24,000 nucleotides of DNA. It comes from Lachnospiraceae bacterium. Its GTDB lineage: Bacteria; Bacillota; Clostridia; Lachnospirales; Lachnospiraceae. A program made the translations under genes and the position numbers. Of this stretch, positions 4,623 through 21,367 are shown one piece after another (the first letter of the stretch is position 1; each line of letters opens with the position of its first letter). The notes beneath the pieces are model-generated. The model saw only the letters and a list, made by a program, of their open reading frames with translations. It made no database searches and was not told the origin of the DNA. The stretch spans positions 8,137 through 32,136 of the forward strand of contig JAEFAR010000024.1 in NCBI GenBank assembly GCA_016287675.1. Direction: 5' to 3'.

Positions 4623-4646
4623 TTCATAATCTCCAATCAATGTCGA

Positions 4647-5198
4647 CTACTCGGCGATCATTGTAAGGAAGGTTGCCGGCTTGTCGCCGTAGCACTTCTG
4701 ACCGTGTTTGTAGTTCGGGTTAAAATAAATACTGTCGCCTGTGTTTAAAATAATCTCCTGGTCGTCAAAGACGACGACGACACTGCCCGAAATGACAAGA
4801 TTGAATTCCTCTCCCTTGTGGCTTACAAGATCCGCGGGTTTGTCCGAAGGATCCAGAGTTACAAGGAAAGGTTGCATTATTTTGTTAGTGAAGCGATAGG
4901 CGAGATTTTCGAACTTGTATCCCGGATACCTGTCCGCGTTCTGGCCTTCGCCCTTACGAACCACCTGATAAGTACGAAGCTTTGCGCTGGTACCTGTCAT
5001 GATCTCGGAAAAATCCACGTGATAAAGCTTTGCCATTGAATAGATCACACTGATGGGAACGTTCGCTGCAGACTTCTCGTACTCATTGTAAGTCTCAGTG
5101 TCGATCCCCAGCTCGGATGCAACATATTCGGGTGTATAATCGCAAGCATCACGAAGGGCCCTGATCCTCTCAGCCAGTTCTTTTAATTCGTCTTCCAT
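4647..5198 (-). CDS. XRE-family HTH + cupin domain transcriptional regulator (PuuR/SutR-like architecture)
   Basis: The N-terminal part, LAERIRALRDACDYTPEYVASELGIDTETYNEYEKSAANVPISVIYSMAKLY, is an HTH_3-type helix-turn-helix. The C-terminal part, HKGEEFNLVISGSVVVVFDDQEIILNTGDSIYFNPNYKHG, is a cupin beta-barrel. It is clearly homologous to residues 1-195 of the 755-aa protein at 9870..12137. Confidence 0.85.
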   Translation of the reverse strand: MEDELKELAERIRALRDACDYTPEYVASELGIDTETYNEYEKSAANVPISVIYSMAKLYHVDFSEIMTGTSAKLRTYQVVRKGEGQNADRYPGYKFENLAYRFTNKIMQPFLVTLDPSDKPADLVSHKGEEFNLVISGSVVVVFDDQEIILNTGDSIYFNPNYKHGQKCYGDKPATFLTMIAE

Positions 5199-5233
5199 AG
5201 CTGCTCCTTTCGATTAAAGACCGTGGGGACGGA

Positions 5234-6301
5234 TCAATCGATCTTTACGATCCAGTTGTGCTCATCGGGAGCCTTACCCCACTGTATGGAAGTAAGTGTA
5301 TCATAAAGCATCTGAGTTGTCTTTCCTATTTCAAAATTATTGATCTTGTATTCCTTATCCTTGAAGATAAGTTCTCCGATGGGAGAAACAACAGCAGCCG
5401 TTCCGGTTCCCCATGCTTCTTCAAGTCTGCCGCTCTTTGCAGCTTCAAAAAGTTCATCAACGGAGATCCTTCTCTCTTCTACCTTGTATCCCTTAGCCTT
5501 CAGGAGTTCTATGCATGACTTTCTGGTAATTCCCGGAAGCACTGAACCTAAGAGTTCGGGAGTAACAACAACTCCGTCGATCTTGAACATAACGTTCATG
5601 GCGCCCACTTCTTCGATGTACTTTCTTTCAACACCGTCAAGCCAGAGAACCTGTGAGTAGCCCTTCTTTGCAGCCTTTTCGCCGGCTCTGTAGGATGCAG
5701 CGTAGTTACCGCCGCACTTTGCATATCCCGTGCCGCCTCTTACCGCACGAACATCCTCGTCCTCGATCATGATCTTAACGGGAGCGAGTCCTTCTGCATA
5801 GTAGCTGCCGGAAGGGGAACAGATCACGCAGAATGTGCACTGATGAACGGTGTGAACGCCGAGCTTGGGATCGGTTCCGATAAGGAAGGGACGGATGTAA
5901 AGAGAAGTTCCCTCCGAATGAGGCACCCAGTCCTTCTCCACTTCAACGATCTTCTTGATGCACTCAAGCATCTCCTCTTCAGGCATCTGAGGCATGCAGA
6001 GACGCTCTGCGGAATTGTTCATTCTGCGAACATTCTCGATGGGGCGGAAAAGCTGAACCTTTCCTTCTGCTGTTCTGTAAGCCTTAAGTCCTTCAAAGAT
6101 CTCGGCTCCGTAATGGAAAACTGCTGCTGCGGGTGAAAGTACGAAATCTGCGTAAGGCACGATCTCAGCATCCTCCCAGCCGTTCTCAGCCGTCCACTTG
6201 CGGATGAGCATATGATCCGAGAACACTGCTCCGAAGCCAAGCTTTGATTCATCTGTAGGTTTAGCTTTAGGCGAATTGGTAAGTTTTAAATTGATCTTCA
6301 T
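5234..6301 (-). CDS. ilvE: Branched-chain amino acid aminotransferase (PLP fold type IV)
   Basis: MKINLKLTNSPKAKPTDESKLGFGAVFSDHMLI...YGAEIFEGLKAYR...LYIRPFLIGTD...GTGYAKCGGNYAAS...GITR...GTGTAAVVSPIG is typical of the long-form BCAT. The ATG at 6301 is preceded by GGAGGG at 7 nt. The 6376 extension has no RBS. Confidence 0.9.
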   Translation of the reverse strand: MKINLKLTNSPKAKPTDESKLGFGAVFSDHMLIRKWTAENGWEDAEIVPYADFVLSPAAAVFHYGAEIFEGLKAYRTAEGKVQLFRPIENVRRMNNSAERLCMPQMPEEEMLECIKKIVEVEKDWVPHSEGTSLYIRPFLIGTDPKLGVHTVHQCTFCVICSPSGSYYAEGLAPVKIMIEDEDVRAVRGGTGYAKCGGNYAASYRAGEKAAKKGYSQVLWLDGVERKYIEEVGAMNVMFKIDGVVVTPELLGSVLPGITRKSCIELLKAKGYKVEERRISVDELFEAAKSGRLEEAWGTGTAAVVSPIGELIFKDKEYKINNFEIGKTTQMLYDTLTSIQWGKAPDEHNWIVKID

Positions 6302-6352
6302 ATTTATCCCTCCGTTTTCTTTATTTTCCCTTTTACACTTAAAATCGGAACA

Positions 6353-6401
6353 CAGTGTAAGCACTTTCCCGGCCAAATAACGGCGGAGACAGCTTACACT
6401 G
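6353..6401 (-). other. Intercistronic stem-loop formed by a perfect 10-bp inverted repeat with an inner GC stem
   Basis: The minus-strand RNA reads CAGUGUAAGC-ugucu-CCGCC-guuauuu-GGCCGG-gaaagu-GCUUACACUG. It sits between the gamma-subunit stop (6439) and the ilvE start (6301). A third partial copy, AGUGUAA, lies about 15 nt downstream. Confidence 0.6.
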
Positions 6402-6438
6402 CGTCAAGTTCGTATATGTCTGTACAAAGAAACATCTG

Positions 6439-6972
6439 TTACATATTGTAGCCTGTTTCAAGAGCTTTCTTGTTGAACTCAAGCATATCCTGATGTCTTG
6501 CGGAAATGATCTTTCCAAGTACCTTGTCAACGGAATCCATTTCAAATCCGGGGATCTCTTTGATGAGTTTTCCGGTAATGATCATGTTTGCAAGTGTGCT
6601 GATGTTCATGTCATTGGCTGTCTTTGTAGCCGGAATGTAGAAGACCTCCACATCCGTTCTCTCAACCTTTTTGTCGATGAGTGTTGAATCGATGAAGATC
6701 TTTCCTCCGGGTACTACGGAAGCCTCAAACTTCTCAAGAGAAGGAAGATTCATTGCCACCAGTACATCGGGCTTGTTTACAATGGGAGAACCGATGGGTT
6801 CGTCACTGATGATGACGTTACAGTTTGCCGTACCGCCTCTCATCTCGGGGCCGTAGGAAGGAAGCCAGGAAACCTGCTTGTCCTCGATGAGTCCCTTATA
6901 TGCCATGAATTTTCCCGCAAAGAGGATACCCTGACCGCCGAAGCCTGCGAATAACATTCTTGTTGTAGCCAT
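6439..6972 (-). CDS. 2-oxoacid:ferredoxin oxidoreductase, gamma subunit
   Basis: MATTRMLFAGFGGQGILFAGKFMAYKG...SYGPEMRGGTANC is the canonical gamma-subunit N-terminus of the POR/VOR/KOR family. Its ATG overlaps the beta-subunit stop (TGATG), which indicates translational coupling. Confidence 0.9.
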   Translation of the reverse strand: MATTRMLFAGFGGQGILFAGKFMAYKGLIEDKQVSWLPSYGPEMRGGTANCNVIISDEPIGSPIVNKPDVLVAMNLPSLEKFEASVVPGGKIFIDSTLIDKKVERTDVEVFYIPATKTANDMNISTLANMIITGKLIKEIPGFEMDSVDKVLGKIISARHQDMLEFNKKALETGYNM

Positions 6973-7724
6973 CAGTTGTTACCTCCTTCTGCGTAAATGT
7001 CCTTGTAAACGCCCAGAGGATAGTAGGGGATCATGTCTGTCTGGATGAACTCCAGCGCCTTCTCGGGGCTCTTTCCCCAGTTTGTGGGGCAGGAAGAAAT
7101 GACCTCAACAAGTGAGAAGCCCTTTCCTTCAACCTGATTCTTGAATGCATGAAGAATAGCCTTTTTAGCCTTTCTGACATTTGCAACGTTGTTTACCGCA
7201 ACTCTCTCGAGGTAAGCAGCGCCGTCAACCTTTGAAAGCATTTCGCACATCTTCATGGGATAACCTACTGTGTTAACATCACGTCCGTAGGGAGAAGTCT
7301 GCGTAACCATTCCGGGAAGAGTGGTGGGAGCCATCTGACCGCCTGTCATTCCGTAGATCGCATTGTTTACGAAGATAACGGTGATGTTCTCTCTTCTTGC
7401 TGCGGAATGAACGATCTCGGCCGTTCCGATGGAAGCGAGGTCTCCGTCACCCTGGTAGGTGAAGACGATCCTGGAGGGATCGGAACGCTTTACGCCTGTG
7501 GCAACTGCCGGAGCACGTCCGTGAGCTGCCTGAACGCAGTCAACATCGAAGTAATCATATGCCATAACGGAGCATCCTACGGAAGCCACGCAGATGGACT
7601 GTCCCTGTATGCCCAGCTCATCAATGGCTTCGGCAACAAGGCGATGAATGATACCGTGGGTGCAACCGGGGCAATAGTGCAGGGTCGCATCGGTTAATGC
7701 TTTGGGTTTGTGAAATTCAGCCAT
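6972..7724 (-). CDS. 2-oxoacid:ferredoxin oxidoreductase, beta (thiamine-diphosphate-binding) subunit
   Basis: The N-terminal Cys motif is YCPGCTHG. The TPP-binding motif is GDGDLASIG...NNAIYGMTGGQ. Its start overlaps the alpha-subunit stop (TAATG). Confidence 0.9.
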   Translation of the reverse strand: MAEFHKPKALTDATLHYCPGCTHGIIHRLVAEAIDELGIQGQSICVASVGCSVMAYDYFDVDCVQAAHGRAPAVATGVKRSDPSRIVFTYQGDGDLASIGTAEIVHSAARRENITVIFVNNAIYGMTGGQMAPTTLPGMVTQTSPYGRDVNTVGYPMKMCEMLSKVDGAAYLERVAVNNVANVRKAKKAILHAFKNQVEGKGFSLVEVISSCPTNWGKSPEKALEFIQTDMIPYYPLGVYKDIYAEGGNN

Positions 7725-8785
7725 TAGTTTTCACCTCCGTTTACTTTTTCGATGGAGGCAAGCACCTCTTCGGGGGAAGGGATCATTCCGCCCGTGCGGT
7801 TGCAAAGGTAAACAGGTTTCTTGCAACGCTCGGCAAGCTCTACATCCTGGATCATCTGACCCATGTTCATTTCAACAGTGATAAATGCCTTGACCTTGTC
7901 AGCTGCCTCTAAGATGGGCTTCTTGGGGAAAGGCCAAAGGGTGATGGGACGGATCATGCCCACCTTGATGCCCTTTGCACGAGCTGCAACAATGGCATTC
8001 TTTGAAACTCTGGCAGTGATACCGAAGGAAACGATGCAGATCTCAGCATCATCCATCATGTAGGATTCGTACATGACTTCGTTCTCTTCCACTGTCTTAT
8101 ACTTTTCAAAACGTTCAAAATTCTTCTGCTCAAGCTGTTCAGGCTTTAAGTAAAGGGAATTGACGATGTTTCTGGGTCTCTTGCATTCTGTTCCGGTGAG
8201 AGCCCAGGGCTTTGCAACCTCTTCGATCACGATGTCGTCAATGGCAACGGGCTCCATCATCTGGCCCATGGTTCCGTCTGCGAGGATCATGCATACCATG
8301 CGGTACTTGTCGGCAAGGTTGAATCCCTTTGCTGTGAGCATTGCCATCTCGGAAACGCTTGAAGGTGCAAGGACGATGTTATGGTAATCGCCATGGCTTC
8401 CGCCCTTTGTAGCCTGGAAGTAGTCGGACTGGGAAGGCTGGATGCCTCCGAGACCCGGTCCGCCTCTCTGGACATTGACCACAAGTGCGGGAAGATCGCA
8501 TCCTGCAAGATAGGAAATACCCTCACTCTTTAAGGAAACTCCCGGTGAAGATGAGGAAGTCATTACTCTCTTTCCTGTAGAAGATACGCCGATCACCATG
8601 TTGATCGCCGCGATTTCGCTTTCAGCCTGTAAAAATGTTCCTCCGATCTTGGGCATGCGCTTTGACATGTAAGCCGCAACCTCCGTCTGGGGTGTGATCG
8701 GATAACCGAAGTAGTAACGGCAGCCTGCCTTGATGGCAGCTTCTGCGATAGCTTCGTTACCCTTCATCAAAACTTTCTCTGACAT
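7724..8785 (-). CDS. vorB: 2-oxoacid:ferredoxin oxidoreductase, alpha subunit (VorB/KorA-like)
   Basis: MSEKVLMKGNEAIAEAAIKAGCRYYFGYPITPQTE is the typical alpha-subunit N-terminus. The ATG at 8785 is preceded by GGAGAA. The 8812 extension overlaps the delta gene. The symbol is tentative because VOR versus KOR substrate specificity cannot be read from the sequence. Confidence 0.85.
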   Translation of the reverse strand: MSEKVLMKGNEAIAEAAIKAGCRYYFGYPITPQTEVAAYMSKRMPKIGGTFLQAESEIAAINMVIGVSSTGKRVMTSSSSPGVSLKSEGISYLAGCDLPALVVNVQRGGPGLGGIQPSQSDYFQATKGGSHGDYHNIVLAPSSVSEMAMLTAKGFNLADKYRMVCMILADGTMGQMMEPVAIDDIVIEEVAKPWALTGTECKRPRNIVNSLYLKPEQLEQKNFERFEKYKTVEENEVMYESYMMDDAEICIVSFGITARVSKNAIVAARAKGIKVGMIRPITLWPFPKKPILEAADKVKAFITVEMNMGQMIQDVELAERCKKPVYLCNRTGGMIPSPEEVLASIEKVNGGEN

Positions 8786-8801
8786 AGGTGTTCTCCTTCC
8801 C

Positions 8802-9008
8802 TTAATTCTCAACAGTAATTACGCAGTCAGGGCACATTAGTGCACAGGATGCGCATCCGATGCAGGCATCGGTATCTATGCATTTTGCCGGATGATGTCC
8901 TTTTGCGTTCAGCACGTTCTCATCCAGTGCCACGATCTTTTTGGGGCAAGCTGTCACACAAAGCCCGCAGCCCTTGCAAACATCACTTTTAAATGAAATC
9001 TTCGCCAC
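8802..9008 (-). CDS. 2-oxoacid:ferredoxin oxidoreductase, delta subunit (2x[4Fe-4S] ferredoxin-like)
   Basis: It has two CxxCxxCxxxCP clusters, CKGCGLCVTACP and CIGCASCALMCP. It has a GTG start with GGAGGA 7-8 nt upstream. Confidence 0.85.
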   Translation of the reverse strand: MAKISFKSDVCKGCGLCVTACPKKIVALDENVLNAKGHHPAKCIDTDACIGCASCALMCPDCVITVEN

Positions 9009-9028
9009 TGTTGTATCCTCCTTTTAAA

Positions 9029-9060
9029 CCCCTGAGCCGCTAAAAAACGCGGATGCAGGG
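9029..9060 (-). other. Intercistronic hairpin between the P-loop NTPase gene and the delta-subunit gene
   Basis: The minus-strand RNA reads CCCUG-cau-CCGC-guuuuuua-GCGG-cu-CAGGG and is followed directly by the delta-subunit RBS. There is no U-tract, so it is not a canonical terminator. Confidence 0.5.
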
Positions 9061-9079
9061 TGATCATTTGTTGGTTGTG

Positions 9080-9745
9080 TTAAACTATCTTGTCTTGTAA
9101 ATGAATGACCATGAGGTTTTCGATCTTATCCTTCACCTCATCGTAGACCTTCCGGGTCACTGTCGTGAATCTGATGGGGATACCCGCCATTTCGGACACT
9201 TTTTGAGCAAATTCCACGCTTTCGAGAACATCTTCCGCCGTAGTTTCCTCACCGAGATTCGAATCATTAACGATCCCCGTGAATCTCATGTTTGCCGTGG
9301 TCTCTATCTCGTGCATGATTTCCATCGCCAGTTCCGGAGTTTTGGACAGGGGCCTGAATCTGTTTAAAACCAGAAGCAGTTCGTAGTCGTTCTCTTCCTT
9401 GATCGCATCTGCGTAGCGCCCAAGGGCCGTGGCTCCTCTGTCATCTCCGCCTATGTCAAAGATCGCATATCTGTCATGAATGTCAACCAATGAATAGATC
9501 TCTGCGGGAAGAGCGGGAAGATCCACATTTGATCCTGCATATAAAGACGAGATCAGCGTTATTCCGTTTTCTTCCAATTCCTTTTGGCTGTCCTTGGTCC
9601 TGAAGTAGGGATTTACAATGTCGAGATCGGCTATGGCCACATCCAGTCCCTTTTTCTTCAGCATCAGTGCATAATTAACAGCCACGTTGGTTTTTCCGCT
9701 GCCGTAGTGTCCGGCAAACAAAGTCACTCTTTTAAGCTTGTCCAT
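9080..9745 (-). CDS. P-loop NTPase of unknown function (MinD/ParA/CooC-like SIMIBI fold, classical Walker A)
   Basis: MDKLKRVTLFAGHYGSGKTNVAVNYALMLKKKGLDVAIADLD contains the Walker A motif GHYGSGKT, and AIFDIGGDD is Walker-B-like. The ATG at 9745 is preceded by AGGAGA. The 9802 extension lacks an RBS. Confidence 0.7.
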   Translation of the reverse strand: MDKLKRVTLFAGHYGSGKTNVAVNYALMLKKKGLDVAIADLDIVNPYFRTKDSQKELEENGITLISSLYAGSNVDLPALPAEIYSLVDIHDRYAIFDIGGDDRGATALGRYADAIKEENDYELLLVLNRFRPLSKTPELAMEIMHEIETTANMRFTGIVNDSNLGEETTAEDVLESVEFAQKVSEMAGIPIRFTTVTRKVYDEVKDKIENLMVIHLQDKIV

Positions 9746-9869
9746 TTTTCTCCTGTTAAAAGTATAATTATTCAGTTTATAACTTTTAAATACATTTTGC
9801 AAGCATTATTTCTTTAACGTTGTGAAGCAGTACCATTAAAAAATTTTACATTATTCAGAAGAAGCCCTT

Positions 9870-12137
9870 TTAAAGCGCTTTTCTGATAACTTTGCCGCTT
9901 ATGGTCTTGGGAAGCTCGGTTCTGAATTCCACGATCCTGGGATACTTGTAGGGAGCTGTCTTTTCCTTGACGTAATTCTGTATCTCTTTCTTAAGATCTT
10001 CGGTTCCTTCCTTGCCGGGAACAAGAACTATGCATGCTTTAACCACCTGTCCTCTGACGGGATCGGGAGCTGCACATACGCCGCATTCAAGCACATAAGG
10101 AAGTTCCATGATGACATTCTCGATCTCGAAGGGTCCGATCCTGTATCCCGAAGACTTGATGACGTCGTCGATCCTGGAAACATACCAGAAGTAACCGTCC
10201 TCATCCTTGTAGGCGATGTCTCCTGTGTGGTAATAGCCGTCATGCCATGCTTCTTTTGTCTTGTCAGGCTCTTTGTAGTACTCCAGAAGAAGTCCGCAGG
10301 GGATACCGTTCTTGGTGCTGATGCAGATCTCTCCGTTTTCCGCGGTACCCACGGGATTTCCTTCTGTGTCCAGCAGTTCCACATCATATGCGGGTGAAGG
10401 CTTACCCATTGAGCCCGGCTTCGGCTTCATGCCGACCAGGTTTCCGATCGTGAGTGTGGTCTCGGTCTGTCCGAAACCTTCCATAATATCAAGTCCCGTA
10501 GCCTGCTTGAACTGATAGAACACTTCGGGGTTCAAAGCTTCACCTGCGGTAGTCGCGTGCTCTATGCATGAAAGATCGTATTTTGTAAGGTCCTCCTTAA
10601 TGAACATTCTGTACATTGTGGGAGGTGCGCAGAAGGTGGTGATGGGATACTTGGCAAAAAGTTTCAGTATGTCATCCGCATGGAAGCGCTCGAAATCGTA
10701 AACGAATACTGCCGCTTCATTAAGCCACTGACCGAAGAGCTTGCCCCAGAGGGATTTGCCCCAGCCTGTGTCCGAAATCGTAAAGTGGAGGCCATTGGTC
10801 CTTACGCAGTGCCAGTACTTAGCTGTGATGAAATGTCCCAAAGCATACGTACAGGAATGGAGTACCATCTTGGGATAGCCGTTGGTGCCGCTGGAGAACA
10901 GCATGATCATGGGATCTTCGCCCTTTGCGCTGTCGGCGGTTCTTAAATACCTTCTGGAGAAGAAAACGTACTCGTCATCGAAATTTCTCCAGCCATCCTT
11001 GTGTCCGCCGACGATGATCTTGTTCTGAAGGAAAGGACATTCCTTTGCCGCATCGTCAACGGCATCTGTCGTACCGTCCGAAAACGTACATACGATGGAA
11101 TGGATGTCACCTGCCCTGAAGCGGTAGACAAAGTCATGACTCTTAAGCTGATTCGTGGCGGGAACAACAATCGCCCCGATCTTATTCAGTGCCAGGAAGG
11201 CTACCCAGAACTGATAGTGACGCTTGAGTACCAGCATTACCCTGTCGCCTTTTTTGATACCCAGGGATGTGAAGTAATTTGCCGCCTGATTTGAAAGTTC
11301 CTTGAATTCCTTAAATGTAAAACGTCTTTCGTTCTTGTCTTTGTCCAGATGGATCATTGCCAGCTTGTCGGGCTTTGTCTTTGCGATCTCATCCACAATG
11401 TCAAAAGCGAAATTGAATTTATCCGTGTTTTTAAAGTTGATGCTGTGGAAGCTTCCGTCTTCGTTGTCAACGCTGTCGATGAAGTTTTCGTAAACCAGTC
11501 CCTTGGTCTGCTTTGCACGTACGATAGCTTCCGTCGCAAAGCCGTTATCCTGTTCGTCGGATGCCATGATCATGGCGATGAACTTGCAGGCTTTTCCGCC
11601 AACAGCGATCATTCCGTGGGGCTTGCCGGAAGTGTAGTAGATGGAGTCTCCGGCATTCAGGATCTCCACATGTTCACCCACCTGCACTTTCAGCGATCCT
11701 TCAACGATGTAGTCAAATTCCTGGCCTGAATGTATCGTGGTGTGAATGGGAAGGTTCTGCAGCTTTTCATCGTAATCGTAAGTAACGAGGTAGGGCTCGG
11801 CAAGCTTCTTCTTGAAGTAGGGTGCAAGGTTCTGGATGAGCTCTCCGGCTTCGTTTGCTGTTGTAAGACCCATGCCTCCTCTTACCACATTGTAAGAAGA
11901 AAGTCTTGCACTCTGTCCCTCGATAAGTTCTGTCATCTCCAGTCCGAAAGCAAGTGCACATTTGTGCACAAACGTAAAGGGAAGTTCCGCTTCACCGTTC
12001 ATGTAAGCATTGAAATGCTCCATATCGACTTCTGCCTTTGCTGCAAGCTCTTCGTCGGAATAGCCTTTGATATCCTGCATATCACGTATTCTCACGACGA
12101 CTTCGTTCACTTGATCTTTCATTTCCGGCTTAACCAT
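9870..12137 (-). CDS. Fusion protein: N-terminal XRE-HTH + cupin regulator module (about aa 1-195) joined to an AMP-forming acyl-CoA synthetase (about aa 236-755)
   Basis: The N-terminal part, RIRDMQDIKGYSDEELAAKAEVDMEHFNAYMNGEAELPFTFVHKCALAFG...HSGQEFDYIVEGSLKVQVGEHVEILNAGDSIYYTSGKPHG, aligns along its length with the stand-alone regulator at 4647..5198. The C-terminal part has the ligase motifs FSSGTNGYPKMV, GFGQTET, SGYRIGPFEIENV and LPKTISGKVIRK. The ATG is preceded by AAAAGGAGAAAAACC. Confidence 0.9.
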   Translation of the reverse strand: MVKPEMKDQVNEVVVRIRDMQDIKGYSDEELAAKAEVDMEHFNAYMNGEAELPFTFVHKCALAFGLEMTELIEGQSARLSSYNVVRGGMGLTTANEAGELIQNLAPYFKKKLAEPYLVTYDYDEKLQNLPIHTTIHSGQEFDYIVEGSLKVQVGEHVEILNAGDSIYYTSGKPHGMIAVGGKACKFIAMIMASDEQDNGFATEAIVRAKQTKGLVYENFIDSVDNEDGSFHSINFKNTDKFNFAFDIVDEIAKTKPDKLAMIHLDKDKNERRFTFKEFKELSNQAANYFTSLGIKKGDRVMLVLKRHYQFWVAFLALNKIGAIVVPATNQLKSHDFVYRFRAGDIHSIVCTFSDGTTDAVDDAAKECPFLQNKIIVGGHKDGWRNFDDEYVFFSRRYLRTADSAKGEDPMIMLFSSGTNGYPKMVLHSCTYALGHFITAKYWHCVRTNGLHFTISDTGWGKSLWGKLFGQWLNEAAVFVYDFERFHADDILKLFAKYPITTFCAPPTMYRMFIKEDLTKYDLSCIEHATTAGEALNPEVFYQFKQATGLDIMEGFGQTETTLTIGNLVGMKPKPGSMGKPSPAYDVELLDTEGNPVGTAENGEICISTKNGIPCGLLLEYYKEPDKTKEAWHDGYYHTGDIAYKDEDGYFWYVSRIDDVIKSSGYRIGPFEIENVIMELPYVLECGVCAAPDPVRGQVVKACIVLVPGKEGTEDLKKEIQNYVKEKTAPYKYPRIVEFRTELPKTISGKVIRKAL

Positions 12138-12263
12138 GGTTTTTCTCCTTTTAATGTTGGATGTTGGTTCAAAAAATTCATTATGCTATACACGGATTGC
12201 TTCGCTGCTTCGTAGCTCCCGCAATCCTGCGAACATTCGCAAACCGCTGATTTTTGCTTTTGC

Positions 12264-12305
12264 AAAAAGAAAACGTCCCAAGATTAGTAAACTAATCTTG
12301 AGACG
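12264..12305 (-). terminator. T-box expression-platform terminator
   Basis: CGUCUCAAGAUUAG-uuua-CUAAUCUUGGGACG forms a 14-bp stem with one G-U pair and is followed by UUUUCUUUUU. Its 5' arm overlaps the 3' arm of the antiterminator. Confidence 0.85.
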
Positions 12306-12547
12306 AAATATTCATTCCGCGGTACCACTCAATTTCCTGCTTGGCAGGCTCTTTAAGGTCTTACAACCTCTTTGCACTAACGTAGCTCTCACGTAGGCCA
12401 CTACTCGCTTTCGCTTTCGCATCCTCAGCTCGGAAGGGATTGGATGATCTTAAGTTCTTACAGGCTCGCACCAAACGCCTGCTCTCTGAAAAGAAGTTTT
12501 AAAAGTCCGTCTTCGTCACAGCTTTTATTCAATACCTTATTTAATTG
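12264..12547 (-). promoter_or_regulatory. T-box riboswitch leader (tRNA-sensing transcription attenuator)
   Basis: Read on the minus strand, the leader contains the following elements. K-turn/GA motif: AGCUGUGACGAAG...CUUCCGAGCU. AG bay: CAGAGAG. Distal stem: CAGGC/GCCUG with an 11-nt loop GUUUGGUGCGA. Stem III: CCUGC-caa-GCAGG. T-box sequence: AAAUUGAGUGGUACCGCGG (12317..12335). Antiterminator: UUGAG/CUCAA flanking the 7-nt bulge UGGUACC. A mutually exclusive terminator follows. Confidence 0.85.
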
Positions 12548-12553
12548 TTCGTT

Positions 12554-12582
12554 ACTTTACCACTTTAAATTATCTTTGTCAA
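12554..12582 (-). promoter_or_regulatory. Sigma-A promoter driving the T-box leader (TTGACA-17-TAAAGT)
   Basis: The reverse complement of 12577..12582 is TTGACA and of 12554..12559 is TAAAGT, with a 17-nt spacer. The -35 overlaps the TGA stop codon of the upstream glycoside-hydrolase-like gene. Confidence 0.7.
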
Positions 12583-15500
12583 GAAGGTATTTTAAAAAGT
12601 TCAGGACGCTTCAAAATTCCGAAGGGATCCGGCTTGTATTCGTAGCTCCAGCTTGCCCCGACGGTTCTCCACGAATCGGGATCCTGATGTCTGTACTGTC
12701 GGTCGCAGAGATGCAAGGGACTGAAGGTGTTGTTCCTGTTTCCGAAAGCAGTGAGGCGGATCTCATGTTTTCCCCTCTTCACGCCGCGGATCAGGCATTC
12801 ATAAGGTGAAAATGCAATGTTTCCGGCGTCTTTTCCGTCCAGCTCAACTTTAATAAGAGGGCATCTGAAATCCGTCGCTCTGACAAGAAGATCTCCGTCA
12901 TTCCCGAGCTCAATGTCCCAGATGTAGCTTAAGTTTCCGCTGTAAAAAGGAAGATCCTGCCTTGAAATGTCGCCAAAGCCGAGAATCTCGGGCTTTTCGA
13001 CAATGACTGCCTTTGAGCCTTTAAGTCTCACGCCGAAATCACCGAGGACGTACAATGCTTCCAGTTCCTTGATCTTTCCGGACAGCGTCTTTAAAATGAG
13101 TTCATTCCTTCCTTTTTTCAAAACACCGAGGGCGATCCTGTCTATGTCACGATCCACGAAGAAGCCTTCCTTCTTCATTTCGACCGCACGGTCGTTAAAG
13201 ATCAGTTCATAATTCTCGGGTTTTTCAATACCGAGCGAGAGTTCTGTGCCTTCGATCTCCGACTCAAAACTGTATCTGAGCGTAAGGTCGCGCGTGTACT
13301 CAAACCCGTCGTCCATTGCCCACGGCTGCGGATAGGCATGCTGCCGCACGGTTCCGCCCGCTTTCTCGCGAAGGATGTTGTCGATCCTTAAGATCTCCTC
13401 TTTTTTACCGAACTCTTCGTCTCCGATCCTGTATTCCGCCATGTCCAGAAGCAGCACATTCGGCTCGGCAAGTTCGATCTTCACGTTCTCGGGCACTTCC
13501 AAAGAGAGACTTTCTCCTCCCGGCCTGCATTCATCGGCCGGCTTTGCAAAAGCCGCAGCCTCTTCCTTCAAAGGAACAAGTTTCAGCAAAAGGCTGTCAT
13601 GGTCGAAAAACTCCTTTTCGATAAATGTCCTTCCGTTTTCCGCCCTGAAAGGGATCTCATAAATGTCCCCGGTCAGCGCATCGTAGACCACGGGCTTAAA
13701 CATGCCTTTTAAGCATATATGGAGGTTATCCTTGTGAGGGATGTCCACAGGCTCATTTCTGAAGGCATGAGCCAAAAAGAGCCAGTTGCATTCTTCCTCA
13801 GACCGCATCTGATAGATCAGGTTTCCGACAGGATTTCCCCTGTCATCACGTATCTCAACGATCTTCTGATCCTTAAGGGCATTAAGGATCGAATACCTGT
13901 CAAAGCCCACCTTCGTAAATCCCGTGCATATTTTTTCAAGAGAATCGTCGGGTTTTGCATTAATATGCGTGGGTGTCCGGCCCGCAATGATGACTTTGCC
14001 GCCCGCTTCCGCAAAAGCTTTAAGTGCATCGATCGTGGTTTTTCTTATCGTGATGAGGTCAGGGACAACAACGGCATCGTATCTCATTTCGCCGCACACG
14101 AACTTTCCGTCTTCAACACCGTTCTTAAAGCCCGCAAGGAGCGATTCGGAGATAAGATCAAAGTCGACGGATCCGAGCAGAAGCCATGATGTCAGGTTTT
14201 GGAATTCCTCATCCCTCTGCCTTCTGAGTTCTCCGGTCTGTTCTTCGTTGCCCCATAGGAGCCAGAAGGACTCTATCGGATGGATCACGCCCACTTTTAC
14301 GACCGGCTTTCCTCTTGTGAGAGCCGTGTTGATCCTTGCAAAATAGTCCTCAACGTGCTTGTATTCTTTGTACCATGGCGACTGATAGCCGATCGATGCG
14401 GGATAGTCACGTTTTGCTTCTCCCGCCATTGATGTCCATGTAAGGTGCGGAACCCGCACAGTTACTCCGAGGGCAGCCTGCCAGTCTCCCTGAAGCTTGT
14501 GTCCTCTGAAGTCAAAATTGTAGCCGGTAACGCCGTAAAGCTCGCTCATGATCCCGGGAGCGCCCTTTTGATGAGCAGCACTTTGAGCCTGCTTTGCGGT
14601 GGTGAATTCTCTGTGATCGCAGAGCATGTCTATGCCCGGAATGTCAAATCCGCGGTAGGAACGCATGGCTTCGCCGAGACAGGCTGTCTGAGAAGTAAGA
14701 GTGGGCTCTTCCATCATATGCCCGGTCATCAGGATGTTGTGTTTCCTGCACCAGTCTCCGATATTGTCCGCAAAGCTTTCCGCAAACCGTTCGCAGACAA
14801 AATCGTGGTATTCGTATCTTGTAACGGAGTATTTTCCTTCTCCCGCTTCCCAGAAAAGCTCCGGAAGGCTGTCAAGCAGGCTGTGTCCGTATCTCTTCGT
14901 AAAGTCATCCTCAAAATCGTCCGAGAAGGGGATCTTGACCGTTCTGCTGTCCTCCGCAAAGCCCAGCCTTTCCTTTGATGCGAACTGGGGTTCATCCGTG
15001 AATATTGCGGGAATGTCCTTTCCGAAGCCGTCTCCGAGCTCGGAATAGTATTTGTCATGCGTTATCCTTATGAATTCGTCGATGGCCTTCTTGTCCAAAG
15101 TGTTTACATATGCCTGATAATTGAACCAGGGATTATCACCGCAGACTTCGAGAAATGCCCATCTCGTCTTCATCCCGGGTCTTGCGCTCTCGTTCTCCTT
15201 AAGCCTTCTGTAGGATTTAAGGAATCCGTCTTTGAGCTCGATCTCGTACTTCGCAAGGAGGACATTGTCGTCTCCTCTTACGGGCACGGCGCAAGAACTG
15301 TAATGGCGCTCTCTTTTCAGTTTTTCACGGTCTTCCTTCTCCTCTTCCGTGAAAACGAGGAACCTCTCCCTGAAGTGCCGGTCCTTCGTCACAAACCCGC
15401 CTGCCGAGCCGGACGGCCATCTGTCTTCATCATAGAGCCACGTGAGCATTCCGTTCTTTTTGAAATTCTCGCGTGCTTTCTTAATGAGTTCCATGAACTC

Positions 15501-15704
15501 TTCTCCGAGGTACACGTTTCCGAGTCCGATCCTCGAATGAAGATGTGCGCCTCCCATGCCCATGTCCTTAAAGACTTCGGTCATGAGATCCACTTTTTCT
15601 TTTGTCATCTTCGTGTTCCACGCCCAGAAAGGAGTTCCTCTGTATTCCGCTCCCGGGTCTTTGAACACTTCATCCGTTAATTTTTTGGTGTTTTCATATA
15701 ACAT
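12579..15704 (-). CDS. Large cytoplasmic glycoside-hydrolase-like protein (family not assignable by eye)
   Basis: The product is 1041 aa with no signal peptide. The N-terminus YRGTPFWAWNTKMTKEKVDLMTEVFKDMGMGGAHLHSRIGL...WLYDEDRWPSGSAGG recalls TIM-barrel glycosidases that PGAP annotates generically as glycosyl hydrolase. A mid-region VVVPDLITIRKTTIDALKAFAEAGGKVIIAG resembles the GATase1-like module of GH42 and lacto-N-biose-phosphorylase-type enzymes. The C-terminus is beta-rich. The ATG at 15704 is preceded by GGGGGTGA. The 15782 extension is rejected. Confidence 0.5.
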   Translation of the reverse strand: MLYENTKKLTDEVFKDPGAEYRGTPFWAWNTKMTKEKVDLMTEVFKDMGMGGAHLHSRIGLGNVYLGEEFMELIKKARENFKKNGMLTWLYDEDRWPSGSAGGFVTKDRHFRERFLVFTEEEKEDREKLKRERHYSSCAVPVRGDDNVLLAKYEIELKDGFLKSYRRLKENESARPGMKTRWAFLEVCGDNPWFNYQAYVNTLDKKAIDEFIRITHDKYYSELGDGFGKDIPAIFTDEPQFASKERLGFAEDSRTVKIPFSDDFEDDFTKRYGHSLLDSLPELFWEAGEGKYSVTRYEYHDFVCERFAESFADNIGDWCRKHNILMTGHMMEEPTLTSQTACLGEAMRSYRGFDIPGIDMLCDHREFTTAKQAQSAAHQKGAPGIMSELYGVTGYNFDFRGHKLQGDWQAALGVTVRVPHLTWTSMAGEAKRDYPASIGYQSPWYKEYKHVEDYFARINTALTRGKPVVKVGVIHPIESFWLLWGNEEQTGELRRQRDEEFQNLTSWLLLGSVDFDLISESLLAGFKNGVEDGKFVCGEMRYDAVVVPDLITIRKTTIDALKAFAEAGGKVIIAGRTPTHINAKPDDSLEKICTGFTKVGFDRYSILNALKDQKIVEIRDDRGNPVGNLIYQMRSEEECNWLFLAHAFRNEPVDIPHKDNLHICLKGMFKPVVYDALTGDIYEIPFRAENGRTFIEKEFFDHDSLLLKLVPLKEEAAAFAKPADECRPGGESLSLEVPENVKIELAEPNVLLLDMAEYRIGDEEFGKKEEILRIDNILREKAGGTVRQHAYPQPWAMDDGFEYTRDLTLRYSFESEIEGTELSLGIEKPENYELIFNDRAVEMKKEGFFVDRDIDRIALGVLKKGRNELILKTLSGKIKELEALYVLGDFGVRLKGSKAVIVEKPEILGFGDISRQDLPFYSGNLSYIWDIELGNDGDLLVRATDFRCPLIKVELDGKDAGNIAFSPYECLIRGVKRGKHEIRLTAFGNRNNTFSPLHLCDRQYRHQDPDSWRTVGASWSYEYKPDPFGILKRPELFKIPS

Positions 15705-15726
15705 GGCTTCACCCCCTGTTAAGGAA

Positions 15727-15755
15727 ATAATAGTGCTTTCCGTATCCCAAGTCAA
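15727..15755 (-). promoter_or_regulatory. Sigma-A promoter for the glycoside-hydrolase-like gene (TTGACT-17-TATTAT)
   Basis: The reverse complement of 15750..15755 is TTGACT and of 15727..15732 is TATTAT, with a 17-nt spacer. It lies about 25 nt upstream of the ATG. Confidence 0.65.
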
Positions 15756-15856
15756 CCTTACGAAGGTGTATATAAAGCGCAAAAAAGTGAGCCATCCCGC
15801 CCTGCGGAACTGCCCACGATGATGAATTGTTGCTTTACTGCATGTGTCGGAAGATC

Positions 15857-15902: not shown

Positions 15903-17657
15903 TTAATTTACAAATCCCACGGCTGCACTGGTCACCGACTTACCGTTGTACGTAATGGTGACGCGGACGTACTTGAGATGGGTCTGGGCATATACGGAAT
16001 CATAGCTTGCTCCGTCCGGAACAGTGTCCGAAATGTTCAAAGTTCTGGAGTTTCCCACACCGTCGATCTCTGTCCATGCTGTTGCATTCTTTGCGGCTGC
16101 GTACTCCCACTTGAATTCGAAATCATCAAGATCGGTAGACAGCTTTGATGTCAGGTTCGTGCTGGGGTTAGCAGTCAGTGTGAATCCGAGCTTCGGGCTT
16201 CCGGAGATGGAAGCATAGGTCAGAGCCTTTGAGTAATCAAGACTCGGCGAGCAAAGCCTGTAAGGTGAAGGAAGTTCGGTCTTGGTTCCGGTCTTTCTCA
16301 CAACTATGATGGATCCGCTCACTGCTCTGCTGTAAGCGATCTTGGTGTAGCTGTTTGCCTTTAATGTGGTCCACTGCATGTTTGTAACGGGAAGCTGCGA
16401 GTAAGCAGTTGCGGAGACCGTTGCCCCCGCTGCAGGGAAATTGGAAAGTCCGTATCTTGCAGCATCCGTGGGAGTGAGCACAGCAACCTGAAAATCGCAG
16501 TCATTGTTGTTGGTAATCTGGATGCCGCCGTTACCTGACTTTGAAGAAACGTATTCTATCTCAATGTTTGCCTGCTCTGCAGCAGAAAGGGTTCCGGATG
16601 TGGGCACGGTGATCTCTGTGATACGGCTGGCTGCAGCCCTCTGTGCGCCTGCGGTTCTGACGTAAAGCACCGCAGAGGATGTTATGGGATCCGACATGGC
16701 AAGCCCAAGAGCCTGCTGTGCAAGGAATTTTGTTGTCCTCACGGAAGTGGTGATGGGCTCGATGGCGGTGAGTCTGTCCGTGGAAGGCACCGTAGCTTCA
16801 TCGGTGGTGGCATTTGAGGCAAAAACGGGGATCAGAGTCCAGTTTTCTCCGTCCAGTGAGAATTCCTGTCCGTTCTTTAAATTGATGGTTCCGTCAATAA
16901 GATTAATGTTAACGATAGGTCCCGGAAGAATCTTTGCCAGAGTGTATCTCGCAACTCCCGAAGAACGGTTTCCGATGCCGTTTGCATCGTCTGCCTGGCT
17001 GACGGATCTTATGCGGAACTCAAGTGCTCCGCCGCGGATCTCCATCTCATGAGGATCCAGGTCCTTAAATTCATGCCAGTTTCCGTTGGTGCCTTTACGC
17101 CATTCTATGTTCTCAAGTTCCAGATAAGTCTGGTCCCTGTTGTTGACCTTTTTGGTAAAAATGAAGTATCCCGTGTCTTCACCGAAATGTACGGCGTAAT
17201 CAGGCTCCGCATACTTCGCTTTCCAGCTCTCTGCATCCGTGATGTCCGTTGCGAGAAGTGTTCCCGTGAACTTCACGCCGAGAGTGTCCTGCCACTTGAG
17301 CACTATGCTCGAGATCTTTGTGTGGTTGTCACCGCAGATGTAAACCTTTACATCCGCATTGCTCCTCGCCCAGGAGAAGTCAAACATGGCCACATCATCG
17401 CGTACATCGCAGCAGTACCATTTTGAAATGTCGGCGGTATAGGTGTCGGTGAAGTAGATCTTTTCATCCCTATCTCCTGCGGAAAGAGAGCTTTCATCTA
17501 TGATCACGGACATTCTGTCGTAATCGATGGTTATGAGGTTACTCGGCACTGCCACTCCTGCGGAAGCAAAGACACCGTCGTCAGCATTCAGTCCCACAGC
17601 CATCGCGATCAGTGTAACAACAGCGATAAGCCGCAAGATCAACCTTTTCGTTTTCAT
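15903..17657 (-). CDS. Secreted protein of unknown function (584 aa, Sec signal peptide, beta-rich)
   Basis: MKTKRLILRLIAVVTLIAMAVGLNADDGVFASA has a positive n-region, a hydrophobic core and an ASA cleavage site. The ATG at 17657 is preceded by GGAGGG. I recognise no motif, LPXTG signal or lipobox. It is only 40 nt downstream of the flgN/fliT-like gene, with no terminator between them. Confidence 0.7.
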   Translation of the reverse strand: MKTKRLILRLIAVVTLIAMAVGLNADDGVFASAGVAVPSNLITIDYDRMSVIIDESSLSAGDRDEKIYFTDTYTADISKWYCCDVRDDVAMFDFSWARSNADVKVYICGDNHTKISSIVLKWQDTLGVKFTGTLLATDITDAESWKAKYAEPDYAVHFGEDTGYFIFTKKVNNRDQTYLELENIEWRKGTNGNWHEFKDLDPHEMEIRGGALEFRIRSVSQADDANGIGNRSSGVARYTLAKILPGPIVNINLIDGTINLKNGQEFSLDGENWTLIPVFASNATTDEATVPSTDRLTAIEPITTSVRTTKFLAQQALGLAMSDPITSSAVLYVRTAGAQRAAASRITEITVPTSGTLSAAEQANIEIEYVSSKSGNGGIQITNNNDCDFQVAVLTPTDAARYGLSNFPAAGATVSATAYSQLPVTNMQWTTLKANSYTKIAYSRAVSGSIIVVRKTGTKTELPSPYRLCSPSLDYSKALTYASISGSPKLGFTLTANPSTNLTSKLSTDLDDFEFKWEYAAAKNATAWTEIDGVGNSRTLNISDTVPDGASYDSVYAQTHLKYVRVTITYNGKSVTSAAVGFVN

Positions 17658-17697
17658 GGCATTCCCTCCTTGCATATACTTAAAAGCCACGGAGCAG

Positions 17698-18192
17698 TCA
17701 GTGTTTTTCGTCAAGAAAAACCGGCGTCACGGCATTTAGCCCGTTCATGCTCTTGTAGTACTTGTCCGCAGTCTGGCGGCTGACCTTGAAACTCTTCTTG
17801 CCTTTACGGAGTTCCTCGATCCTCTTGTCCAGTGTAGACTTGTTCTTCTTTTCAAGAGCCGAAACAGTGACGCTCAGATCAGTGATCTCCTGAATCAAAG
17901 CTTGGAGCCTGCGGATCGCATCCGCATGCTCCTTGCCCTTTTCCCTGATATCCTGAGAGATCTTATCAAAGAGCTTCTGAAATCCTTCATCCATCTCCGT
18001 CAGCTCATTGATAAGCTTTGTTTTATTGTCAATGGCGTCATTAAAAGTCTTTTCGTCAATGCTCTCTTTTGCCAGTGCATCTTCCTGTGCCTTAGTGGCT
18101 TCGTATATGCCCGTAAGCACCTTCTTCTTTCGCACCAGCACGTCCTGCATTACTCTTAAGTATCCGCCAAAATCAAGTCTGTCTTCCATCAT
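17698..18192 (-). CDS. Flagellar export chaperone-like protein (FlgN/FliT-like), all-helical
   Basis: The product is about 164 aa and is a coiled-coil-rich acidic/basic helical protein sitting directly after fliS, as fliT/yvyG does in Bacillus. The motif MMEDRLDFGGYLRVMQDVLVRKKKVLTGIYEATKAQEDAL resembles FlgN-family N-termini. The second ATG at 18189 has better RBS spacing, so the start is uncertain by 3 nt. Confidence 0.55.
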   Translation of the reverse strand: MMEDRLDFGGYLRVMQDVLVRKKKVLTGIYEATKAQEDALAKESIDEKTFNDAIDNKTKLINELTEMDEGFQKLFDKISQDIREKGKEHADAIRRLQALIQEITDLSVTVSALEKKNKSTLDKRIEELRKGKKSFKVSRQTADKYYKSMNGLNAVTPVFLDEKH

Positions 18193-18207
18193 TTCTCCAA
18201 TGCGGGA

Positions 18208-18588
18208 TTAACGAACATACATATGGTTCTGCTTCATGATCTCTTTCCAGAGGTCTCTCATCTCACGGATCTGTCCGAGAGCCTTCTCAAGGCTTTCTCT
18301 TTCCTTTTTGATGTTGGCCTGGATCAGAAGTGTGTTGATGTATTCGTAAATGAGATCGAAATCCTTCGCTGTCTCATACTTGAAATCAAGTGTTGCGCGG
18401 AATTCGGTAATGATGTTCTGAACCTTGATGATGTTGTTATTCACTTTTTCGTAGTCATTGGTCTCGAATCCGAGAAGCGCGATGTTACAGAACTTGATAG
18501 CGCCTTCATAGAGCATCAATGTGAGTTCGGCGGGAGAAGCCGTGTTAACTTTTGTTCCCTGATAGAGTGTTGCTGCATTCATAGCCAT
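18208..18588 (-). CDS. fliS: Flagellar export chaperone FliS
   Basis: YQGTKVNTASPAELTLMLYEGAIKFCNIA...IIKVQNIITEFRATLDF...AKDFDLIYEYINTLLIQAN is the FliS four-helix-bundle signature. GGAGGA lies 9 nt upstream of the ATG. Confidence 0.9.
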   Translation of the reverse strand: MAMNAATLYQGTKVNTASPAELTLMLYEGAIKFCNIALLGFETNDYEKVNNNIIKVQNIITEFRATLDFKYETAKDFDLIYEYINTLLIQANIKKERESLEKALGQIREMRDLWKEIMKQNHMYVR

Positions 18589-18613
18589 ATTCTTTTTCCT
18601 CCGATTTCATTAA

Positions 18614-20518: not shown

Positions 20519-20577
20519 ATGCTTTACCTCCAAATTCCTTTTTCTTTTTTGCGCTTCCCTGCGTAAGAGTTAATTGG

Positions 20578-20997
20578 TTACCTTTGTTCGTCTACCAGGA
20601 TCCCTGCCACTTCCCACATCTTGGAAAGCATGTCCAGCGTCTCCTGCGGCGGTATTTCTCTGATGACCTCATCCGTTTCGGAATCGATCACCTTTATCGA
20701 AACACGCTTTGTATCTTCGTGATAAGCGAATTCACAACGCGTCTTTTGATTCATCTTTCGATTGACTTCGGCGATGGCATTTTTGACCTTTTTTGTGTTT
20801 TCTATGTTCTCCTTGGTCTGTTCCTCGATCCTTTCCGTTGCCGAAGGCTTGGAGTTTTTGGGATTTGCTTCAGCCTTTTTTGCGGGTTCCTGCTTTTCGG
20901 GCTTTACCGTTTTGGGTTCCGGGGCCTTGGCAGTCACCTTGGCAGCCGCTTTACTGTTGTATACCTGGTTGTTTACATTGATCTTATCGATTCCCAT
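20578..20997 (-). CDS. flaG: FlaG-family flagellar protein
   Basis: The C-terminal FAYHEDTKRVSIKVIDSETDEVIREIPPQETLDMLSKMWEVAGILVDEQR is the FlaG domain. The N-terminus is low-complexity and Lys/Pro/Ala-rich. The gene sits directly upstream of fliD. Confidence 0.85.
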   Translation of the reverse strand: MGIDKINVNNQVYNSKAAAKVTAKAPEPKTVKPEKQEPAKKAEANPKNSKPSATERIEEQTKENIENTKKVKNAIAEVNRKMNQKTRCEFAYHEDTKRVSIKVIDSETDEVIREIPPQETLDMLSKMWEVAGILVDEQR

Positions 20998-21051
20998 TTT
21001 GCTCCCTCCGTTATTATTTCCTCTTTCTTATACTTCGGTCTTCTGTGTATT

Positions 21052-21079: not shown

Positions 21080-21101
21080 CGAAGAAAAATAAAATTTTTG
21101 T

Positions 21102-21364: not shown

Positions 21365-21367
21365 TGT

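Follow-up and report, generated by a model that had tools for sequence, protein, structure and literature searches.

The locus and its leader RNA

The window analysed here is a stretch of 24,000 nucleotides (nt) from a Lachnospiraceae bacterium (assembly GCA_016287675.1, contig JAEFAR010000024.1, positions 8,137 to 32,136 of the forward strand). Its minus strand carries a T-box leader with its promoter and terminator, upstream of nine genes that lie on the same strand with short gaps between them. These encode a helix-turn-helix (HTH)/cupin protein fused to an acyl-CoA synthetase, a P-loop NTPase, a ferredoxin, the three subunits of a 2-oxoacid:ferredoxin oxidoreductase (VorB/A/C), the aminotransferase IlvE, a stand-alone HTH-cupin protein, and a second synthetase. 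The leader has the make-up of a canonical transcription-attenuating T-box riboswitch that would sense the charging of tRNA-Ile(GAU). The elements of the leader region are the following (coordinates are those of the window):

12554..12582, minus strand: sigma-70-type promoter with 10/12 matches and an upstream TG (extended -10 TGnTAAAGT at 12562..12554)
12296..12528, minus strand: T-box leader (Stem I, Stem II region, Stem III, T-box sequence, antiterminator), from RF00230 and covariation in 46 orthologues
12428..12524, minus strand: Stem I (kink-turn (K-turn), GAAG/CUUC helix, compact specifier loop, GGA/UCC helix, AG bay, distal loop), from sequence, model match, folding, and alignment
12438..12440, minus strand: specifier codon AUC (isoleucine), invariant in the alignment, then C12437
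12317..12335, minus strand: T-box sequence AAAUUGAGUGGUACCGCGG, from sequence, RF00230, and folding
12298..12332, minus strand: antiterminator, UUGAG/CUCAA plus GCGGAAU/AUUUCGU with a 7-nt bulge, from folding and alignment
12264..12305, minus strand: intrinsic terminator, with a 14-bp stem at 12305..12274 (one G-U pair) and a U-tract, UUUUCUUUUU, at 12273..12264

The Rfam covariance model RF00230 matches the window at 12528..12296 (minus strand) with 100.6 bits (E 2e-21), above the gathering score of 93 bits and over model positions 1-219 of 219. That this is a genuine T-box leader can be taken as practically certain. At the base of Stem I, the K-turn is formed by the 5' strand GC-UGUGA-C-GAAG (12522..12511), which pairs with the 3' strand CUUC-C-GA-GC (12436..12428). 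The specifier loop above it is compact (5' AC / 3' A-AUC-C) and lacks an S-turn (AGUA/GAA). The AG bay, CAGAGAG, lies at 12488..12482, and the distal loop, GUUUGGUGCGA, at 12476..12466, both on the minus strand. Downstream, the antiterminator bulge UGGUACC occupies 12327..12321, of which UGGU is 12327..12324. The terminator and the 3' strand of the antiterminator have CGUCUCAA in common, so that the two hairpins are mutually exclusive. Folded alone, the antiterminator reaches -7.1 kcal/mol with its 7-nt bulge visible, and the fold that includes the terminator reaches -22.4 kcal/mol (z = -3.6); this is the usual gap for tRNA binding to overcome.

The promoter is read as a -35 box TTGACA (12582..12577), a spacer of 17 nt, and a -10 box TAAAGT (12559..12554), which would place the transcription start near 12547. 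It is the top promoter-like site in 2000..13000, a region in which such sites are not enriched as a class (9 found vs 11.3 expected from shuffles). TTGACA is likewise found at the equivalent position of the related locus L081. The -35 box of this promoter overlaps the stop codon of an upstream open reading frame (ORF) of 1067 residues. All core T-box elements that the initial annotation had listed in order on the minus strand, together with its TTGACA-17-TAAAGT promoter and its 14-bp terminator competing with the antiterminator, were recovered where it had placed them, and the full-length RF00230 match is the outcome of the check that it had named.

Conservation of the leader

The leader was compared among 80 loci from species-representative genomes encoding the same 755-residue fusion at 61-97% identity, nearly all of them metagenome-assembled genomes (MAGs) of rumen, hindgut, or human-gut Clostridia. 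The T-box motif GAGUGGUACC[G/A]CG is present 90-250 nt upstream of the fusion gene in 76 of the 80, and 46 of these motif-bearing orthologous leaders were aligned. A hand-written structure of Stem I and the antiterminator leaves 96.1% of the alignment cells paired, against 38-49% when the partners are slid. Compensatory changes occur in 10 pairs, and none of 500 shuffles reaches the observed values; RNAalifold reports double changes in 24 of 41 pairs.

Pairing is 98-100% in the helices at alignment columns 17-20/101-104 and 23-25/93-95. It is 100% for the GAAG/CUUC helix, counted over those leaders that cover its columns (38-42 of 46 for each pair), and the short GGN/NCC helix directly above the specifier loop displays 27 double changes at columns 25/93. 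Covariation is present in both the terminator and the antiterminator, the latter having compensatory changes in 3 pairs of its helix 252-258/277-283. Furthermore, the AGAGA of the AG bay and the GGUG of the distal loop are kept across the alignment. Some of the relatives' isoleucine leaders fall just under the Rfam threshold, as that of locus L018 (86 bits).

The specifier codon and the sensed tRNA

The specifier AUC is invariant in 46/46 aligned leaders. The position that precedes it varies freely among C, U, A, and G, and the one that follows is A in 28 leaders, C in 17, and G in one. The register is confirmed by the paralogous leaders found in related loci (see below), which read GUA (41) or GUC (4), then G or A, then CUUC at the same place, since their +1 register would give UAG or UAA. 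At the other end of the leader, the N of UGGN is U in 46/46, which fits a tRNA with discriminator base A73. Bacterial tRNA-Ile carries A73. The leader is thereby very probably a tRNA-Ile-specific sensor. No tRNA gene was found in the window; the 49 loci scanned contain no tRNA-Ile gene and one useful tRNA-Ser gene (G73).

The downstream operon

The nine genes and their products are as follows:

9870..12137, minus strand: ACS1, XRE-like HTH and cupin fused to an AMP-forming acyl-CoA synthetase, 755 residues (Cupin_2, AMP-binding, AMP-binding_C)
9080..9802, minus strand: CbiA/MinD/ParA-type P-loop NTPase, likely start ATG 9745, 221 residues (Pfam CbiA)
8802..9008, minus strand: 2x[4Fe-4S] ferredoxin, VorD-like delta subunit, 68 residues (Fer4 families)
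6439..8812, minus strand: 2-oxoisovalerate-type 2-oxoacid:ferredoxin oxidoreductase (POR_N, PFOR_II, TPP_enzyme_C, POR), comprising the next three lines
8812..7724, minus strand: VorB alpha subunit (NF005507, 535 bits vs a cut-off of 399)
7724..6972, minus strand: beta subunit, binding thiamine pyrophosphate (TPP_enzyme_C)
6972..6439, minus strand: gamma subunit (POR)
5234..6376, minus strand: IlvE, branched-chain aminotransferase, likely start ATG 6301 (NF009897, 483 bits, cut-off 307; TIGR01123, 403 bits, cut-off 250)
4647..5198, minus strand: stand-alone XRE HTH and cupin protein, 183 residues (HTH_3, 32.9 bits, cut-off 23; Cupin_2)
2958..4640, minus strand: ACS2, second AMP-forming acyl-CoA synthetase, 560 residues (AMP-binding domains), 48% identical to ACS1

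ACS1 is preceded by a Shine-Dalgarno sequence, AAGGAG, at 12150..12145. The order proposed at the outset, with the fusion gene first and the oxidoreductase and transaminase behind it, holds: all lie on the T-box strand, and no strong terminator separates the T-box from the named genes. Within the operon, the terminator-like sites are weak, and shuffles contain at least as many. No second T-box was detected in the window operon, even at E up to 1, and its intergenic gaps are too short to house one. The nine genes would be co-transcribed, in which case the distal ones would also come under T-box control.

The closest PDB match of both ACS1 and ACS2 is 3ETC (MacsMa), with 634 and 695 bits, respectively, and the top NCBIfam model for both is MbcS (NF047394). 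MacsMa prefers 2-methylbutyrate for full CoA-ester formation and adenylates C3 to C8 acids (PMC10455477). MbcS activates 2-methylbutyrate and isobutyrate, and isovalerate poorly (PMC10026030). From these similarities, the substrate of the operon is most likely 2-methylbutyrate. As annotated, a synthetase, VorB/A/C with its ferredoxin, and IlvE supply every step of a known route by which a branched acid becomes a branched-chain amino acid. Such reductive carboxylation is established physiology in rumen organisms (PMC2812497; PMC10658910) and has been put forward to explain why M. ruminantium requires 2-methylbutyrate (PMC2812497). PMC7476758 cites Monticello 1984 for the formation of isoleucine from propionate and alpha-methylbutyrate.

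The anabolic direction is suggested by a switch that would be on at isoleucine scarcity, together with an AMP-forming ligase that consumes ATP. The initial annotation had proposed that uncharged tRNA turns on an unconventional route to an amino acid. The gene set and the isoleucine codon support this proposal, with the amendment that the route, unconventional as it is, is not new.

Layout of related loci

Downstream genes were counted in the 49 loci that extend at least 7 kb beyond the first synthetase. VorB is found downstream in 47 of them and IlvE in 37. The commonest layout (34 loci) consists of an isoleucine T-box, the fusion, a second T-box, a second XRE-cupin/synthetase, and the P-loop, ferredoxin, VorB/A/C, and IlvE genes. 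The second T-box stands between the fusion and the paralogous XRE-cupin/synthetase, as in L005 (12311..12558, 99 bits), L018 (12312..12571, 88 bits), and about 45 other loci, and its specifier is a valine codon, GUA (41) or GUC (4). A few loci (L032, L048) have the T-box and the fusion without Vor genes.

Loci L081 (assembly GCA_964653855.1) and L082, both 85% identical, share the nine-gene order of the window. Together, the three represent a single-T-box variant, in which the isoleucine T-box precedes all genes and the last two genes of the operon encode a separate HTH-cupin partner and its synthetase, which is divergent (48% identity) but has GWAK. The GWAK variant is common to ACS2 and the valine-T-box synthetases; overall identity, 48% to all copies, nonetheless lends no support to ACS2 being an orthologue of the latter.

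The isoleucine- and valine-controlled synthetases form distinct orthologous groups, the nearest neighbour lying in the same group for 75 of 76 sequences. One column splits the two groups at 90% or more, reading TGW-G-K in the isoleucine-controlled and TGW-A-K in the valine-controlled enzymes; it corresponds to residue 460 of the window fusion. The codon of this residue lies at about 10758..10760 (minus strand), and ACS1 has G and ACS2 A (SGWAK) at this position. The Trp of TGW[G/A]K presumably lines the acyl pocket, as in related synthetases, and the Gly/Ala column is a possible determinant of pocket size.

The range of MbcS (2-methylbutyrate and isobutyrate, not isovalerate) matches the occurrence of isoleucine and valine T-boxes, and of no leucine ones, before this synthetase family. 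Leucine T-boxes (CUC or CUG) are seen near the cluster in L005 (4048..4285), L074 (4659..4898), L026 (5361..5597), and L023 (9512..9273, minus strand). That of L005 precedes a LeuA-like protein (463 residues) and an AP_endonuc_2::AMP-binding fusion of 818 residues. A leucine T-box before a LeuA-like gene fits the formation of leucine from the valine keto-acid and not from isovalerate, in line with the poor use of isovalerate by MbcS. A tetrahydrofolate (THF) riboswitch (RF01831, 71.4 bits), unrelated to this finding, lies upstream of the cluster in L026 (3223..3320).

Proposed mechanism

Transcription would begin at the TTGACA/TAAAGT promoter. Stem I would then present AUC in its compact specifier loop beside the K-turn, while the platform of the AG bay and the distal loop would dock the tRNA elbow, by analogy with characterised T-boxes. 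When tRNA-Ile is uncharged, its ACCA end is expected to pair with UGGU and to stabilise the antiterminator (-7 kcal/mol) over the terminator (about -21 kcal/mol), resulting in read-through. When it is charged, the terminator would form and the transcript would end at 12264. Read-through would yield an operon transcript of about 9.2 kb, whose products would make a branched-chain amino acid out of a branched short-chain acid. In this scheme, an AMP-forming synthetase turns the acid, most likely 2-methylbutyrate, into its acyl-CoA; VorB/A/C with ferredoxin may carboxylate the acyl-CoA reductively to the 2-oxoacid; and IlvE would transaminate the latter to isoleucine. Isoleucine would recharge tRNA-Ile and close the feedback loop. 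The proposed acid, 2-methylbutyrate, is abundant in the rumen and gut.

Weighing the proposal and its alternatives

The probability that the T-box switches on an acid-to-isoleucine salvage is put at about 0.7. Several points weigh against this proposal. The source is an uncultured Lachnospiraceae MAG, and the proposal rests on sequence. VorB/A/C and IlvE are reversible, and their direction is not readable from sequence. With the MbcS model, ACS1 scores 451.1 bits and ACS2 445.5 bits, against an equivalog cut-off of 850 that both miss by far. In the leader, the AGUA positions and two 3' positions of the Rfam alignment are deleted, and the base 3' of the codon is C12437 in place of the usual purine. 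An S-turn and a purine 3' of the codon are common in T-boxes, and not universal. Most relatives have their Vor and IlvE genes behind the valine T-box, so that control of the whole operon by isoleucine only is a lineage variant.

Two further features of the window belong to the same side of the balance. The 125-nt AT-rich spacer that follows the fusion gene (9745..9870, minus strand) contains promoter-like hexamers, TTTAAA-18-TATACT, and could provide the P-loop and Vor genes with a promoter of their own. Within the 138-nt gap between vorC and ilvE, a 10-bp stem, CAGUGUAAGC ... GCUUACACUG, with a 26-nt loop at 6340..6405 (minus strand), could serve RNA processing or attenuate transcription in part. 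Given the hexamers and the stem-loop, extra control of the distal genes is possible.

Among the alternatives, one retains an isoleucine-specific T-box and takes the acid to be propionate, whose CoA ester would be carboxylated to 2-oxobutyrate and carried on to isoleucine by IlvBCD and IlvE. The step from propionyl-CoA to 2-oxobutyrate belongs to a clostridial isoleucine route documented in PMC7476758, and C3 is within the range of acids that MacsMa adenylates. However, the preference of MacsMa is for 2-methylbutyrate, and the top NCBIfam model is that of a 2-methylbutyrate/isobutyrate enzyme; the oxidoreductase passes the VorB (2-oxoisovalerate-type) model; and the operon has no ilvB, ilvC, or ilvD, whereas IlvE alone completes the route from 2-methylbutyrate. 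Propionate is therefore an improbable substrate.

It is likewise unlikely that the T-box serves lipid synthesis, inducing the synthetase to scavenge 2-methylbutyrate as a primer of anteiso fatty acids when isoleucine is scarce and can no longer serve as the source of 2-methylbutyryl-CoA. MbcS plays this part in S. aureus (PMC10026030), and the loci without Vor genes (L032, L048) would suit it. Primer supply, however, needs neither VorB/A/C, to which the synthetase is linked in 47 of the 49 loci, nor IlvE, also present in 37, and what T-boxes report is tRNA charging, a protein-synthesis signal. The two uses are compatible.

There is little to recommend a catabolic operon, in which IlvE and VorB/A/C would oxidatively ferment branched-chain amino acids, and the T-box would govern the first gene only or be a relic. 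These enzymes are catabolic in many anaerobes, besides being reversible, and the hexamers after the fusion gene could be taken in its favour. Yet switching on at isoleucine starvation would be illogical for isoleucine degradation; the AMP-forming ligase spends ATP, whereas fermenters use phosphotransacylase/kinase or ADP-forming synthetases; and the T-box elements are all intact, under purifying selection with covariation.

Finally, a shift of the specifier by one base, to the +1 register, would turn it into UCC (UCN in the family as a whole) and the switch into a sensor of tRNA-Ser; this is the one competing register. The +1 readings UCA, UCC, and UCG are all serine codons, and a purine does not always follow AUC. 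The register is ruled out, however, by the UAG or UAA that it gives in paralogous leaders of the same architecture, by the need of UGGU for A73 (the tRNA-Ser gene in L056 has G73), by the CUUC helix, whose first paired base would then be the base after the codon, and by the regulated genes, none of which relates to serine.

The isoleucine-controlled salvage of a branched acid is thus the preferred account of the locus.

The XRE-cupin module and the P-loop protein

The HTH of the fusion scores 19.4 bits with HTH_3, below the Pfam cut-off of 23, whereas its stand-alone paralogue of 183 residues scores 32.9, above it. The HTH domain has a net charge of -5 to -10 and a pI of 4.2-4.7 in 18/18 family members examined, and the N-terminal 72 residues of the stand-alone protein have a net charge of -9 and a pI of 4.3. 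At 11913..12137 and 4983..5198 (both minus strand), the two HTHs of the window have a net charge of -9 and a pI of about 4.3-4.4, with a would-be recognition helix rich in Asp/Glu. Such acidity is unusual for a DNA-binding domain. With a sub-threshold HTH in the fusion and a strongly acidic domain, DNA binding by the module is doubtful and, as judged from its composition, rather unlikely. The module recurs together with a synthetase, either in one protein or as its neighbour, which suggests a role alongside the enzyme. The product of the first gene had been called a regulator-ligase fusion in the initial annotation; the fusion stands, and the role of regulator is not established by these scores and charges.

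An AlphaFold model of the fusion (18 sequences) has a mean predicted local distance difference test (pLDDT) score of 64.7 and a predicted template modelling (pTM) score of 0.52, and the five-helix HTH alone is reliable (pLDDT 79-91). The model is too weak to support fold searches or claims of domain docking. Against PDB sequences, the N-terminal module gives a single marginal cupin match, RemF (E 0.0013).

The P-loop protein is cysteine-free, and its gene separates the synthetase from the ferredoxin-VorB/A/C genes in almost every related locus. The protein has no match among PDB sequences.

Neighbouring elements

One further RNA element lies in the read-through 5' untranslated region, between the terminator and the ribosome-binding site:

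12184..12263, minus strand: remnant of a Clostridiales-1 RNA (RF01699)

The RF01699 match extends over 12327..12184 (minus strand) and, with 47.4 bits (E 1e-7), falls just short of the gathering score of 48. The 3' two-thirds match well; the model's first hairpin is absent from the window, its place being taken by the T-box terminator. The closest relative, L001 (97% identical), harbors a complete copy at the same place (571..749, 113.2 bits), and L081 and L082 have none. The window copy looks, from this comparison, like a partly deleted insertion. An exact pattern search for the 3' hairpin of Clostridiales-1 in 82 loci returned nothing, because L001 differs in the loop. Clostridiales-1 was reportedly classed by Weinberg in 2010 as not cis-regulatory.

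Upstream of the T-box operon, the 1067-residue ORF (12579..15782, minus strand) has a sub-threshold match to Glyco_hydro_42M. It separates the operon from flagellar genes and looks like a lineage-specific insertion, since L081 and L082, although syntenic otherwise, lack it. The ORFs at 15903..23953 (minus strand) resemble the flagellar filament cluster of L081 by size and order (flagellin, FliW, CsrA, FlaG, FliD, FliS, and two further proteins). At the other end of the operon, a possible weak bidirectional terminator, AAAGAG ... AGCUUCGAAGCU ... CUCUUUU, lies at 2915..2957 (minus strand) between the end of ACS2 and a convergent GDSL-type gene (2231..2911, plus strand); the terminator scan did not report this structure.

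Implications

Isobutyrate, 2-methylbutyrate, and isovalerate are required by, or stimulate, many of the anaerobes that degrade fibre in the rumen and gut, and the feeding of these acids is practised to improve ruminant performance. Their reductive carboxylation, which yields valine, isoleucine, and leucine, is biochemistry known since the 1960s. The leader would tie a complete candidate gene set for this route to an unambiguous read-out, that of tRNA-Ile charging, and would add a salvage and CO2-fixing route to what T-boxes are known to regulate. Furthermore, the valine T-boxes of relatives offer testable predictions of the substrate of each synthetase.

A broader and more tentative idea, which we hold to be possible rather than probable, is that T-boxes act as natural substrate labels on a widespread and uncharacterised family of XRE-cupin-tethered synthetases for short branched-chain acyl-CoAs, AUC (isoleucine) marking one paralogue and GUA/GUC (valine) the other, with the acidic and probably non-DNA-binding module as a protein-level sensor over the RNA control. 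If so, the labels would single out the long-sought genes by which rumen and gut Clostridia assimilate branched-chain volatile fatty acids. From them one could also tell in advance the paralogue for 2-methylbutyrate from that for isobutyrate, with the Gly/Ala of TGW[G/A]K as a candidate determinant. The locus also draws attention to three uncharacterised and constant companions of the pathway or the leader: the acidic XRE-cupin module, the cysteine-free P-loop protein, and, in this lineage, the orphan Clostridiales-1 RNA.

Comparison with known systems

The window leader shares with the ileS and ilv-leu leaders of B. subtilis (RF00230) the K-turn, a specifier beside the K-turn helix, the AG bay, the distal loop, and Stem III. 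The 14-nt T-box sequence with its UGGN bulge, the competing hairpins, and amino-acid-related genes downstream are also common to them. It differs in its compact loop without S-turn and in the C that follows the codon. The RNA is an ordinary member of the well-known T-box family, with the lack of an S-turn as a minor peculiarity, and its regulon is undescribed in the literature searched. The window operon falls outside the classes catalogued in a survey of T-box regulons (PMC2494555), namely aminoacyl-tRNA synthetases, canonical ilv/leu operons, and transporters; the survey has no CoA ligase or ferredoxin oxidoreductase among its targets. In the full-text literature, no paper was found that ties a T-box to Vor genes, an acyl-CoA synthetase, or branched-acid assimilation, with a listing in a T-box database staying possible. 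Nor was one found that connects reductive carboxylation in Clostridia with a gene cluster, this one included, or with a mode of control.

Among proteins, regulators of the PuuR type (NF007408) display the same order as the XRE-cupin module, a five-helix XRE-type HTH followed by Cupin_2. The window module differs in being fused to, or encoded beside, an enzyme, and in its HTH, which is strongly acidic and, in the fusion, sub-threshold. MacsMa of Methanosarcina acetivorans, the best solved relative of both synthetase domains, is devoid of the N-terminal XRE-cupin module found in ACS1; for the window enzymes, the use of 2-methylbutyrate is only presumed. MbcS of Staphylococcus aureus provides the top NCBIfam model for both synthetases, yet they score far under its equivalog cut-off; it feeds fatty-acid synthesis and has no link to VorB/A/C or IlvE, in contrast with the window synthetases, which are linked to both.

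The nearest physiological counterpart is the reductive carboxylation of branched-chain volatile fatty acids by rumen bacteria and methanogens. It follows the same logic as the window genes, from acid to acyl-CoA, 2-oxoacid, and amino acid, and its habitat matches as well, the related loci coming from rumen, hindgut, and human-gut MAGs.

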